Origin: Truepera sp.
Lineage (GTDB): Bacteria > Deinococcota > Deinococci > Deinococcales > Trueperaceae
NCBI GenBank assembly: GCA_965218435.1
Contig: CBDCKW010000009.1
Coordinates: forward strand, 1,344,001 to 1,408,000
DNA length: 64,000 bases
Direction of reading: 5' to 3'
Shown here: positions 45,974-58,445 of the stretch, in pieces
Position numbering within the stretch: position 1 is the first letter of the stretch
Layout: each line of letters opens with the position of its first letter
Program-made: the position numbers and the translations under genes
Notes under the pieces: model-generated
Seen by the model: the letters and a program-made list of their open reading frames with translations, nothing else
Databases searched by the model: none
Told to the model about the DNA's origin: nothing

Positions 45974-46049
<76 letters not shown>

Positions 46050-54569: not shown

Positions 54570-55106
54570 CTATTTTTTCGCGAGTTCGTCAATGGTTCCC
54601 AAGATAGTGTCACCCTCAGGGTAAAGGCAGTCTTCCCACGAAGCTACAGCGCCTGAAATGATAACGGCACCATACGCCCTCGGCTCTTCTGGATAAACTC
54701 TATAGCCAGCTGAGCCGTATATTGTGCTGCCGCAGATTGTGTAGGTCACACCTGGGTTATTCGTCAGCTTGATCAAATAATCTCCAAAAACACCTCTTAC
54801 CTGCGGTTTGAGATAAGCCAGGTCGCCATATTTACTCTCTTCATAACCCGTCATCGCGTAGACCTCGCCGTCCAAGCTGACGGTTCCTTCAAAATCGTAA
54901 CGGGTTGAGGTCGTGCTAACCAGACGGCTTTCGGTAGTGATAGGTGGCATCGGCGGATTGACATCGTTGATGTAATCTTCAGGATTTCCAGGATAATACG
55001 TCCCTACAAACGTGCCAATCAGATAAGGCTGAGTATCTATAACTTGGTCGCAGCCCGCTAAACTTGTTACGAACAGAAGAACTAAAAGAGCTTTCAAAAA
55101 GTTCAT
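54570..55106 (-). CDS. Hypothetical lipoprotein
   Basis: MNFLK...SLAGC lipobox; AT-richer; ATGA overlap with the upstream RHH gene. Confidence 0.7.
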   Translation of the reverse strand: MNFLKALLVLLFVTSLAGCDQVIDTQPYLIGTFVGTYYPGNPEDYINDVNPPMPPITTESRLVSTTSTRYDFEGTVSLDGEVYAMTGYEESKYGDLAYLKPQVRGVFGDYLIKLTNNPGVTYTICGSTIYGSAGYRVYPEEPRAYGAVIISGAVASWEDCLYPEGDTILGTIDELAKK

Positions 55107-55324
55107 TTTCTCCACTCGCCACGCAGAAGCCTCTGATATTGCACTCCGTCTATAGTTTTGCCACGCCATAAATCAAATGACTCAGATAGGTCACCTATCC
55201 GGTGAGTATTCAGATATTCGGTCACAGCCTCGCGGATAAGTGCTGTGCTCGAGACCCCTTTTTGCTCACCGAGTTTAGTTAGGGTCTCGAGCTGCTCGTC
55301 AGTCAAATCTACGGCGATTTGCAT
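55103..55324 (-). CDS. Ribbon-helix-helix (CopG/VapB-like) protein
   Basis: MQIAVDL.DEQ...GVS..ALIREAV..YL...DG.QYQR.LR.EW pattern. Confidence 0.75.
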   Translation of the reverse strand: MQIAVDLTDEQLETLTKLGEQKGVSSTALIREAVTEYLNTHRIGDLSESFDLWRGKTIDGVQYQRLLRGEWRK

Positions 55325-55337
55325 ACAAATGAGCGTA

Positions 55338-55808
55338 TCATCCCTGCCGCTGCCACACCCCACCGACCCGTTTGGAAAGCTCGAACGGCCTCTCAGCGTC
55401 CTTGGGCCGGTAGCCCATCCGGGTGTAGTAAGGGAGCAAGTCGGTTTGGGTTTCGCTTAGCCTCAGGCGCAACTCGGGGATATTGTGCTGAATGGCGAGG
55501 GCTTCTAAACGTGTCGTCAGCCAGCGCCCGAACCCCTGTCCCCGGTATTCGGGCAGCGTCGCCAACCGCCCGACCTCCCAGCCGTAAGGGGCTTCGTGCC
55601 AACGTAGGGCGCTGATAAAGATTCCCTCACAGACGAAGGTCAGTGCGCCGCCTTCCTCTAACCACGCTGCTATTCGTGCTTCATTTTCAGCAGGGTCATC
55701 CCAGGCTTTTTGGTAAAGCACGGCGAGTGCGTCAGCGTCGGCGTAGGTGGCCCGTTTGAGGTGCGCGGCTTGGGGCTGAGGTTCGGTTGCCACAGGTTGC
55801 GTAATCAT
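55338..55808 (-). CDS. GNAT family N-acetyltransferase
   Basis: PEYRGQGFG and YYTRMGY motifs; ATGA overlap with argG. Confidence 0.85.
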
Positions 55809-57091
55809 TCGCTGTACTGGGAAATCTTGAGCGGCGGCGTTTTGGTTTCGGCCCCTTGCTGCGCCGCAATTCGCAGCCGGAGCGCGTTCAGTTTGATAAA
55901 CCCGTCGGCGTCGGCTTGGTTGTACACCGTGTCTTCTTCAAAAGTTACGACGTCTTGGCGGTAAAACGAATTGGGCGATTTGCGCCCCGTTAGGGTAACG
56001 CTGCCTTTGTAAAGCTCGAGCCTCGCTGTGCCCGTCACCGGTTTTTGAATGTCGTCCATGAGGTTTTGCAAGGCGACGCGTTCGGGCGCGAACCAGAAAC
56101 CGTTATAGACGATTGAGGCGTATTTGGGCATCAGTTCGTCGCGGAGCTGCATCACTTGTCGGTCTAGTGTCAACGATTCGACCGCTTTGTGCGCGTGAAA
56201 AAGGAGCGTGCCGCCAGGGGTTTCGTAACAGCCTCGAGATTTCATCCCCACAAAGCGGTTCTCGACAATATCCACGCGGCCGATTCCATGTTTGCCGCCT
56301 AAGGCGTTGGCCTTCTCCAAAAGTTCAACCGGCCCTAATGTTTCGCCGTTAATCGCTACCGGATTGCCCGCTTCAAACTCGAGTTCTATGGTCTCAGGCG
56401 TGTTCGGCGCGTCTTGCGGGTCGGTCGTAAGCCGCCACATATCTTTGGGCGGCGCAGCCCACGGGTCCTCTAACACGCCGCCCTCGTACGAGATGTGGTA
56501 CAAATTCGCGTCCATCGAATAGGGCTTTTCTTTCGTAACGCCGACCGGGATGCCGTGCTCGCGAGCGTAGCGCACGCAGTCTTCGCGGCCCCGCAGCGTC
56601 CACTCGCGCCACGGTGCAATCACCTTGATGTCGGGTTTGAGTGCGTAGGCGGAGAGTTCAAACCGTACCTGGTCGTTGCCCTTACCCGTAGCGCCGTGCG
56701 CTACGGCGTCGGCTCCCTCACTTTCGGCAATTTCGACCATCTTTTGCGCGATCAAAGGGCGGGCAAACGAGGTACCGAGCAGATAGTACCCTTCGTAAAG
56801 TGCTCCCGAGCGCAAGACCGGGAAGACGAAATCCTGGACAAACTCACGTTGTAAGTCTTCGGCGTAGGCGCTCACTGCGCCCGTCTGCAAGGCTTTTTCT
56901 TTGGCCTCGGCGACCTCTTCACCCTGGCCGATGTCGGCGGTAAAAGCGACGACTTCAGCGCCGTAGGTATCTTTTAGCCACCGCAAAATAACTGAGGTAT
57001 CGAGGCCACCGGAATACGCGAGGACAACCTTTTTGATCGTGCCTTGGGTTGAGCGGGGATTAGCTTGTGATGAGCTGGGTTGGGCTGACAT
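55805..57091 (-). CDS. argG: Argininosuccinate synthase
   Basis: [22 protein letters not shown] and GMKSRG.YETP motifs. Confidence 0.97.
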
Positions 57092-57146
57092 TCGGTTCTC
57101 CTAAGTTGTGGTGATTAACGTTGTGGTAATTAGCGGCGAAGCGAGA

Positions 57147-57180
57147 CAAGAAAAAACCTCACCCGAGTTGGGCGTAAGGC
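57147..57180 (-). terminator. Intrinsic terminator in the argG 5' leader (attenuator)
   Basis: GCCTTACGCCC-aactc-GGGTGAGG followed by TTTTTTCTTG, between the promoter and the argG RBS. Confidence 0.65.
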
Positions 57181-57205
57181 GGTTGCGCTCGCTTGATAGC
57201 GGGCG

Positions 57206-57241
57206 TTAACGTCGGACGCGGCGGGTAAGGTGTGCACTCAT
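57206..57241 (-). CDS. Putative arginine leader peptide MSAHLTRRVRR
   Basis: ATG AGT GCA CAC CTT ACC CGC CGC GTC CGA CGT TAA; 4 Arg in the last 5 sense codons. Confidence 0.65.
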   Translation of the reverse strand: MSAHLTRRVRR

Positions 57242-57263
57242 AATTTTGACCGCAGGTTTAGCT

Positions 57264-57327
57264 TAGATAAATATGCAAACCGTGCGATAACCTTGCAAAC
57301 TCTAGCATGTCCTTTTGAGAGGGTCAA
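57264..57327 (-). promoter_or_regulatory. argG promoter with tandem ARG boxes
   Basis: TTGACC, 17 nt spacer, (TGc)TAGAGT; boxes TAGATAAATATGCA (57264-57277) and GCGATAACCTTGCA (57284-57297) over the start site. Confidence 0.7.
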
Positions 57328-57377: not shown

Positions 57378-58445
57378 GTGACCGGGCGCGTTTTGCAACT
57401 CCTATTTACAGGTAGCATAGCCGGGTGGGTAGGGGGTTTAGTGACCAGGCAGGATAGGCAGCGAAACGCCCAGGTAAGCCTGGGGCTTCGGATAGTTGCA
57501 GGACTTCTTTTAGGTGTAACCGTCGGGCTCCTTTTGGGGTGGTGTGCGCCGCTTCTACTCTGGCCGGTCGCGCTTGTATTCGTGGCAGTGTGGCTGGGCC
57601 GCTGGCCGCGGCCGGGGGTGTGGCTGCTGGCTGCGACGCTCGGTGTGGTAGTGGTGATTCCCTTTGCACAGATTTTCGTCCAAACGCTCGAGCCAGCTAG
57701 CAAACCGAGTGCTTTTGTGCGGGCCGTCTCGAGCACCCCCCGAGAAGCGCAAGCGTGGACTGGTGTCCAGCGTCTCACAGTTCGCAATACGGACGGCAAC
57801 ATCACGGTGACCGGCGGCCCTTGGCGGCTCCGGGCGCGCTACCGTTGGGGCGCACAGGCAAGCGGCGTCCCGGACGCTTTACTTACGGCGCAGCGCGGTC
57901 AAACGCTCGCCTTTACCGGGCTCGAGCCCGCGTGGGATCAAACACCGCTACGGGCGGCTGAGGCTCAGCTCCGGGCTAGGGTACCGCGCCGGGTCGCGCT
58001 GTCGGTAGACGCCCGGAGCGGCGACGTGACGGCCCGCAACCTCGCTTCAGCGCGGGTTGATACCAACTTGGGTGATGTGACGCTCGTAGGTATTGCGGGT
58101 GCGGCGGTCGCCCTGACGGACGTCGGCAACGTGTTCGTCTCGGACGCAGGCGGGGGCGTCGAAGCCAAAACGCTGATGGGCGACATCTGGCTCGAGCCCC
58201 GCCCTAGTCAACCCGGTGAAGGCGTTGCAGCCCCGATCTTAGCTCAAGCGGACGTCGGCGATATTGCGCTCCTCTTACCGTCCGGTACGGACGCCCGCAT
58301 TATGGCGACGTCGGTCTCGAGGCAACTGCCGGAAAACTTTAAGCGGTTGTCACCCACCAAAGGCGAGCTGGTGCTGGGGCAGGGCTCGAGGCTCATCGTC
58401 TTAAAGACTCGAGTCGGCGCAATCCGCGTCGTGCAGCGCCGGTAA
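57378..58445 (+). CDS. Membrane protein with DUF4097-like beta-strand repeats
   Basis: N-terminal transmembrane helices, repeated T..GD(V/I) units; GGGAGG RBS. Confidence 0.7.
   Translation: MTGRVLQLLFTGSIAGWVGGLVTRQDRQRNAQVSLGLRIVAGLLLGVTVGLLLGWCAPLLLWPVALVFVAVWLGRWPRPGVWLLAATLGVVVVIPFAQIFVQTLEPASKPSAFVRAVSSTPREAQAWTGVQRLTVRNTDGNITVTGGPWRLRARYRWGAQASGVPDALLTAQRGQTLAFTGLEPAWDQTPLRAAEAQLRARVPRRVALSVDARSGDVTARNLASARVDTNLGDVTLVGIAGAAVALTDVGNVFVSDAGGGVEAKTLMGDIWLEPRPSQPGEGVAAPILAQADVGDIALLLPSGTDARIMATSVSRQLPENFKRLSPTKGELVLGQGSRLIVLKTRVGAIRVVQRR

Follow-up and report, generated by a model that had tools for sequence, protein, structure and literature searches.

Ribosome-mediated attenuation is classic for the trp, his, leu, thr and phe operons, whereas for arginine synthesis in bacteria the usual account is control by ArgR; in some Firmicutes, T-boxes control arginine genes. 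A leader peptide encoded by an ORF independent of a Shine-Dalgarno (SD) sequence reportedly lies ahead of the amino-acid genes in the lysine cluster of T. thermophilus. The leader described here, that of argG in a Truepera sp. genome and its relatives among the Deinococcota, resembles trpL and hisL of E. coli in that codons for the end product of the pathway sit in a short ORF and a hairpin plus U-tract precedes the first gene (PMC1183508), and it resembles the E. coli trp operon in that the putative attenuator is stacked on a repressor. With speFL (orf34) it shares consecutive rare Arg codons and a hairpin containing the ORF's 3′ end and followed by a consensus pause site (bioRxiv 10.1101/604074); arginine sensitivity has also been reported for that system (bioRxiv 10.1101/604074; PMC6386406). 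In E. coli, another small ORF before an arginine-synthesis gene, argL ahead of argF, affects expression (bioRxiv 10.1101/511675), but argL runs across the start of argF in another reading frame, stopping it raises expression, and the accessible part of that report describes neither a terminator nor arginine sensing. Within the same phylum, D. deserti has SD-independent ORFs ahead of amino-acid genes (PMC4007540), and argG and arginine are absent among its 14 predicted leader peptides (PMC4007540, Table S9). Each of the 14 begins right at the 5′ end or 1 nt away from it, whereas the argG leader ORF of the two largest families considered here (f1 and f2) starts 30–55 nt inside the leader, and this would account for its absence from that screen.

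The window (the whole stretch of 64,000 nt of Truepera sp. DNA that was analysed) carries a run of genes in the order argG, GNAT acetyltransferase, an unknown ORF of 199 aa, argH and N-acetyltransferase (ArgA-like). The original prediction had placed a promoter, an ORF with Arg codons, an inner hairpin, a GC hairpin with six T and the argG ribosome-binding site upstream of argG on the minus strand, and all of them were found at the positions given there (Table 1). Within the 2 kb scanned there is no other promoter-like site, where 0.5 would be expected by chance, and the promoter's TTGAC..TGnTANNNT geometry recurs 5′ of the leader ORF in relatives. An AT-rich region with palindromes lies between promoter and leader ORF. 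The leader ORF ends with the Arg-rich series CGC CGC GTC CGA CGT, and a C/A-rich spacer separates T6 from the AGGAG of argG. When Rfam models were run against the window, only a tRNA reached the gathering score, and neither a T-box nor a riboswitch was found; five leader loci searched in the same database gave no match even at an E value of 0.5. The argG leader element is thus an annotation gap, lacking a matching Rfam family and with its ORF unannotated. Elsewhere in the window, a tRNA-Trp(CCA) gene is located at 45974–46049 (plus strand). The 199-aa ORF (54570–55169, minus strand), between the argG–GNAT pair and argH, resembles a lipoprotein at its N-terminus and matched nothing in NCBIfam. 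A membrane-anchored ORF of 355 aa (57378–58445, plus strand), also without an NCBIfam match, starts divergently ∼50 nt from the argG promoter, so that both may share a control region.

Table 1. Features of the argG leader region, in coordinates of the window.
Feature	Position	Strand	Remarks
Sigma-70-type promoter, TTGACC-17-TAGAGT with TG extension	57299..57327	-	Predicted start site near 57291-57293
-35 TTGACC; 17-nt spacer; -10 TAGAGT	57327-57322 (-35); 57304-57299 (-10)	-	Sequence
Imperfect second ARG-box-like region	57282..57309	-	Overlaps -10 and start site; predicted
Best ARG-box-like palindrome TTTGCATATTTATCTAAG	57262..57279	-	Within transcribed leader; 13.7 bits; predicted site
Leader ORF MSAHLTRRVRR*	57206..57241	-	ATG 57241 to TAA 57206; 11 codons; without SD
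Segment A ACCTTACCCG, codons 4-7	57222..57231	-	Predicted 5′ strand of long-range terminator stem
Sensor codons CGA and CGT	57214-57212 (CGA); 57211-57209 (CGT)	-	Conserved; immediately 5′ of TAA
Inner hairpin CGCCCGCT-ATCA-AGCGAGCG	57186..57205	-	Abuts stop codon; -9.4 kcal/mol, z -2.65
Segment C CCGCCTTACGCCC	57170..57182	-	Predicted partner: Arg codons (free RNA) or segment D (ORF covered; weaker local hairpin)
Segment D CGGGTGAGG plus T6	57151..57165	-	Predicted 3′ arm of terminator and U-tract; T6 at 57156-57151
argG SD, AGGAG	57098..57102	-	Sequence
argG	55805..57091	-	ATG 57091; NCBIfam argG match

The gene argG was found in 301 of the 326 genomes of the phylum. Leaders were sampled from 186 genomes (f1, 83; f2, 39; f3, 19; f4, 29; f5, 16), and three with less than 250 nt upstream were excluded, leaving 183; f1 presumably corresponds to the Trueperaceae, f3 to the Oceanithermus/Marinithermus group and f4 to the Thermus/Meiothermus group. 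A rule blind to codon choice (an ATG ORF of 7–25 codons, its stop 50–200 nt before argG, and Arg-Arg within the last four codons) identified a leader ORF in 120 of the 183 leaders and in 38 of the 50 genera, compared with a mean of 4.3 and a maximum of 8 passing leaders in 30 dinucleotide shuffles; because the genomes are related, leader counts are not independent. By family, 61 of 82 (f1), 35 of 39 (f2), 10 of 18 (f3), 14 of 16 (f5) and none of 28 leaders (f4) passed. Named Deinococcus species, which belong to the same order as the window genome, have the motif in their leaders too, and all 12 named Deinococcaceae loci, chosen by a motif of the promoter region, satisfied the rule. When only the nucleotide motif served as anchor, 69 of 70 leaders had their nearest ATG in frame, and 67 of 70 their first stop. 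The leader ORF of argG is therefore real and conserved, and the Arg-codon upstream ORF across the Deinococcota, the first thing that the original prediction had proposed to look for, was strongly corroborated. In the window genome, where 1,397 leaders were tested, an ORF of this kind with CGA-CG(A/C/T) occurred only at argG, whereas any Arg-Arg ORF occurred in 22. For the analyses below, the set of 121 comprises the 120 passing leaders and one leader from a short contig; for structure counts, two chance picks (L011 and L056) were removed, leaving 119 (f1, 59; f2, 35; f5, 14; f3, 11).

The leader ORFs are 7–23 codons long (a short example being MLTAARR), use all three stop codons (73 TGA, 34 TAA and 14 TAG) and have no shared residue upstream of the Arg end. 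The Arg pair is separated from the stop by 0, 1 or 2 codons in 52, 43 and 26 of the 121 leaders, respectively; an R-x-R-R end is kept in f1, while Deinococcaceae retain RR alone. Lineages without the leader ORF mostly have a short leader that lacks the hairpin. Several departures from the common form were observed. Seven f4 loci that the rule missed (L186, L200, L201 and L207 in genus g56; L202, L203 and L208 in g57) have near-leaderless Arg-rich ORFs with CGA-CGA in six of them, peptides such as MERRVRRPRA and MFERRRPHHHRKRQRA..., and a separate strong GC hairpin without a U-tract. Apparent decay was seen in L036, where a stop replaces the first CGA, in L076 and L139, where the Arg pair is broken, and in L077, which kept the ORF and lost the long helix. 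In g12 (L010, L038, L039, L042, L043, L049 and L052), the leader ORFs are His-rich, very C-rich and 21 codons long, with an extended inner hairpin; an added histidine input or a loading site for Rho is possible. Two leaders of g26 (L027 and L031) are without the Arg leader and have, by eye, a short ORF running from the 5′ end and overlapping the argG start, possibly for translational coupling. The Deinococcus promoter pattern also matched both ends of a 6-kb alphaproteobacterial contig (L137 and L138), probably by chance, in a terminal repeat.

The first codon of the Arg pair was CGA in 117 of the 121 leaders, and the second was CGC, CGA or CGT in 120. Of the Arg codons in the window genome, 6.3% are CGA, and only 4% of its Arg-Arg pairs begin with CGA. 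Its tRNA-Arg anticodons are ACG, CCG, TCT and CCT; tRNA-Arg(UCG) is absent among its 45 tRNAs, so that CGA must be read by wobble, and a TadA-like gene scored just below the cut-off (142 vs 150 bits). Across the leader ORFs, 196 CGC, 170 CGA and 31 CGT were counted as opposed to 35 CGG, AGA or AGG, and many lineages add further CGC or CGA codons, all served by one tRNA. Attenuators are designed to use codons of a starvation-sensitive tRNA (PMC1183508), which here would be tRNA-Arg(ICG). Because no residue upstream of the Arg end is common to the peptides, what has been selected is the codon pair together with its RNA context; the invariance of CGA may be partly structural, since CGA also pairs in the helix described below.

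An SD-like word precedes only 2 of the 119 leader ORFs, vs 117 for argG. The ATG lies a median of 53 nt (f1) or 40 nt (f2) 3′ of the −10 element, so the leader ORF of these families is not leaderless; that of f3, at 10 nt, is near-leaderless. In D. deserti, a 5′ end of argG has been mapped at −152 (264 reads), with a −10 element, TACCTT, of the same pattern (PMC4007540), and this start agrees with the leader promoter pattern. A second 5′ end of this gene (Deide_00720) was mapped exactly at its own ATG (117 reads; PMC4007540) and would, if real, bypass the leader.

In the minimum-energy fold of the window leader, ACCTTACCCG pairs with CGGGTGAGGT (57165–57156), and the model gave segment A a pairing probability of 1.0 in free RNA. 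The GC hairpin alone is not beyond chance, since one terminator-like site was found and shuffles yield 2.4; GGGTGAG plus a T-rich run is present in all five members of the genus. The original prediction had noticed that a leader segment is complementary to the 3′ arm of the terminator and had taken this as an alternative pairing. In the folding model this pairing does form, but the long-range helix that joins the ORF to CGGGUGAGGU is likely the terminator stem itself and not an alternative to it: the ORF's 3′ half is modelled as the 5′ strand of a long hairpin that closes, at its base, on the U-tract. This also suggests an answer to the puzzle, raised there, of how a switch could work if a stalled ribosome covers the complementary segment: since the A:D pairing most likely is the terminator stem, covering it would be the switch, as is consistent with the ORF-made closing helix in 23 of 28 f1 leaders that have a U-rich tail (see below), even though a local hairpin persists. 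When the ribosome was masked, as had also been proposed, the long helix in the window was weakened from 13.6 to between 6.7 and 8.5 kcal/mol, but the local hairpin before the U-tract (8 pairs plus a bulge) formed with a probability of 0.83–0.92 with the ribosome on any Arg codon. In the window, therefore, a weaker terminator is predicted rather than an absent one. Masked folding revealed no classical 2:3 antiterminator in the window, and a ribosome on the stop codon yielded a terminator no stronger than a stalled ribosome did; as the model makes no distinction between stall and stop, the switch would have to be kinetic, the ribosome being present or gone. The window leader thus has the conserved ORF with end-product codons and, at the sequence level, a terminator; because masked folding showed no separate antiterminator there, it was not filed as a classical attenuator.

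In relatives, too, the 3′ half of the ORF in free RNA pairs with a segment 30–60 nt past the stop, enclosing the inner hairpin. The mean number of expected pairs, compared with the control, was 24.5 vs 14.4 in f1, 16.6 vs 10.0 in f2, 14.1 vs 9.9 in f5 and 11.9 vs 11.3 in f3. The inner hairpin has equivalents in relatives, with compensatory changes in Deinococcaceae. In an alignment of 37 of the 47 Deinococcaceae leaders (10 were omitted as duplicates, length variants or, in four cases, as divergent), 81.5% of the cells of the named structure were paired, as opposed to 35–49% in slid controls, with 50 double changes, 14 of which fall at a codon position before CGA. An RNAalifold consensus recovered the same helix, weakly (−2.96 kcal/mol). 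In f1, 28 of 59 leaders had a U-rich tail at stop +44 to +66 and 31 had none by the rule used; among those 28, the closing helix was made with the ORF in 23 and was local in one. The ORF-made helices come from 12 genera, have 19 different 3′ arms and start 11–20 nt before CGA. A masked ribosome footprint at CGA reduced the helix in f1 from 11.8 to 6.4 kcal/mol on average (a loss of at least 2 in 22 of the 28), and in the 23 leaders modelled for f2 from 12.6 to 3.4 kcal/mol.

U-tracts are unevenly distributed: at least six T in eight positions were found in 33 of the 119 leaders (f1, 15 of 59; f2, 6 of 35; f5, 2 of 14; f3, 10 of 11). The f3 leaders have a separate terminator with UUUCUUCU and an antiterminator, GGGGACAAG:CUUGGCCCC; like the E. 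coli trp leader, they fold into a full terminator/antiterminator pair. Modelled with a longer footprint, all four leaders tested formed the antiterminator whichever Arg codon the ribosome occupied, and the terminator when it was at the stop. Folded as free RNA at full hairpin length, one of these four and two others also gave the antiterminator, and the claim for f3 is therefore confined to the contrast between stall and stop; within it, f3 would qualify as a classical attenuator at the sequence level. Leaders of Deinococcaceae and f5 are mostly without a U-tract, and past their helix come tails that are TCTTG(T/C)GCTG-like or TTTATGCTG. A consensus pause element matches these tails in most f2 leaders and less clearly in f1 (counts below); together with the conserved inner hairpin after the stop, it is a candidate for a pause that would keep ribosome and polymerase in step. 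In f5 (L109–L124), and also in L063, L202, L203 and L208, the position of the U-tract past the hairpin is occupied by a conserved TTATGCTG (CTATGCAG in g57), a candidate for a pause signal, for the tail of a weak terminator or for an ARG half-site.

A repressor layer is probably superimposed on the leader. An argR gene was found in the window genome, and ArgR of T. thermophilus is said to bind at argG. A palindrome, nnTGcATAatTATgCAnn, learned de novo from the promoter regions of 68 relatives is, by its resemblance, presumably an ArgR site; the stretch over the −10 element at 57309–57292 scores 8.5 bits on it. Of the two ARG boxes that had been predicted, the one within the transcribed leader held up (Table 1), whereas the one right after the −10 element reached no more than 4 bits in an 18-bp register; the second ARG-box-like region, TGCAAnGTTATnGC, is kept in all five members of the genus. 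When the window genome was scanned for tandem ARG boxes, 11 sites passed, and the argG pair was not among them. E. coli ArgR binds two 18-bp boxes 2–3 bp apart (PMC4381063), and the likeness extends to imperfect 18-bp palindromes at the argG promoter and an argR gene (PMC4381063); the window differs in having one strong box only and no clean 39-bp tandem pair by scan. A TGCATA element is often retained in lineages that lost the leader ORF (g6 and g23), which makes the two control layers look separable.

From the sequences and their modelled folds, we consider it probable, with moderate confidence, that the argG leader is a ribosome-controlled transcription attenuator of the argG operon that reads charged tRNA-Arg via the terminal CGA-CGY and works without a separate antiterminator. 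ArgR would gate initiation at the argG promoter, and transcripts once started would then meet the attenuator. With arginine plentiful, the ribosome would finish and leave the ORF, segment A would zip with segment D, and the polymerase would stop near 57151. With arginine short, the ribosome would dwell on CGA or CGY and cover segment A and the Arg codons; only the weaker local hairpin would then be possible, and the polymerase would read into argG. The switch would accordingly lie in the presence or departure of the ribosome, a separate antiterminator playing no part, and since ArgR likely represses the same promoter, control would be double, like that of the E. coli trp operon.

SpeFL and the arginine-attenuator peptides of fungi sense a metabolite through the nascent peptide or at the stop, and the argG leader might likewise respond to free arginine, ornithine or citrulline rather than to tRNA charging. 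The constant placement of the Arg pair 0–2 codons from the stop would fit this, and the R-x-R-R end of f1 could act at the peptidyl-transfer centre; yet in ORFs of 7–23 codons no residue besides the terminal Arg pair is conserved, Deinococcaceae have only RR, SpeFL requires a 34-residue sensor and effector (bioRxiv 10.1101/604074), and it is the codon that is fixed, residue changes before CGA being compensated at the RNA level, so that metabolite sensing appears decidedly improbable. CGA might also be a constitutively slow timer codon that sets basal read-through or reports the general state of translation, arginine control being left to ArgR alone. CGA decoded by an ACG anticodon has been modelled as very slow (PMC3783181), rare Arg codons serve as a timer in speFL (bioRxiv 10.1101/604074), and two Arg codons make a small sensor; but the element is specific to argG in the window genome, and the CGC and CGA codons added in many lineages all address one tRNA, and we judge such a timer improbable. 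That the ORF is untranslated, CCGACG serving a constitutive terminator merely as a protein-binding or RNA motif, is hardly credible: the ORF does lack an SD and CCGACG is base-paired, but ATG and stop are in frame (69 and 67 of 70), all three stop codons are used, and f3 keeps the ORF even though its downstream pairing is no better than the control.

The output of the same Arg-codon sensor might be a different one, with the ORF-end hairpin acting as a pause and the transcript being ended by Rho, loaded on the C-rich ORF, or by a double-strand nuclease when the ribosome is gone. Rho is present in the window genome, the ORF before the Arg pair is 45–58% C and 0–17% G in f1, f2 and f5, and speFL combines an ORF-end hairpin, the same pause element and Rho (bioRxiv 10.1101/604074). 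The consensus pause element (G−11 G−10 Y−1 G+1, as quoted in bioRxiv 10.1101/604074) was found past the helix in 20 of 23 f2 (Deinococcaceae) leaders, where tail shuffles gave 9.7 expected, but it is only weakly enriched in f1, where 17 of 33 leaders have it and 12.7 are expected, and in f5, with 6 of 11 vs 3.4 expected. Against this output, pairing with the G-rich 3′ strand also accounts for the C-richness, and a genuine U-tract is present in the window and its genus. As the account of the window this is unlikely, although worth keeping in mind; where relatives lack a U-tract it would be the principal route, and in the window it could supplement intrinsic termination. Alternatively, a stalled ribosome could free the argG ribosome-binding site. 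Small hairpins cover the SD in many leaders, and in some genera the long helix ends no more than 10 nt from it; in the window, however, the SD lies 50 nt past the U-tract, and masking left the modelled cost of opening the argG initiation region unchanged (5.8 vs 4.8 kcal/mol in the window; f1, 9.9 vs 10.0; f2, 6.8 vs 7.8). Just 8 of 59 f1 leaders and 1 of 35 f2 leaders opened more easily by over 1, although 8 of 11 did so in f3. Translational attenuation is thus very unlikely, and a switch at the argG ribosome-binding site was rejected as a candidate because the modelled mask had no consistent effect on opening.

Read as a tRNA-charging attenuator, the argG leader differs from trpL and hisL in that its codons specify arginine, in that the sensor consists of two invariant codons at the stop of an ORF without an SD, and in that the terminator stem in f1 appears to be built with the ORF, no antiterminator being evident. 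SpeFL is a conserved arrest peptide of 34 residues that senses ornithine, controls the catabolic speF and acts through Rho termination (bioRxiv 10.1101/604074), whereas the argG leader has a short, variable peptide, a terminal Arg pair and a biosynthetic target; for the forms lacking a U-tract, speFL is nevertheless, as judged from this comparison, the nearest architectural parallel. A literature search found no description of an Arg-codon leader of argG, and a term search of the accessible text of PMC2965389 returned neither Deinococcus nor Thermus and no arg leader; older attenuation surveys and RegPrecise lay outside the scope of the search, so that an earlier prediction is possible. Leader-peptide attenuation itself is known, and its use with Arg codons at argG, as predicted here from sequence and modelling, is apparently undescribed for arginine synthesis.

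Beyond the window, we tentatively propose, as a possibility that may well prove wrong, that the Deinococcota possess an ancestral, phylum-wide arginine attenuator that has been cut down to a two-codon sensor (a wobble-read CGA and then CGY, placed at the stop in an ORF without an SD) and whose output, the sensor itself being unchanged, has been rewired in at least three ways. If this is true, the outputs would be an ORF-built intrinsic terminator without antiterminator in the window genome, a hairpin plus pause without U-tract in Deinococcus, and a textbook terminator/antiterminator in f3. The leaders offer natural tests of whether two codons, one of them a wobble-read CGA, suffice as a sensor, of how an ORF with neither an SD nor a leaderless start is initiated, and of how transcription is stopped by hairpins with poor U-tracts in high-GC bacteria. 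With a conserved Arg-codon leader in 38 of the 50 genera examined, arginine would join the amino acids under ribosome-mediated attenuation, on top of ArgR; arginine synthesis would then no longer be the textbook exception controlled by a repressor only, and this could be tested in hosts of the D. radiodurans type.
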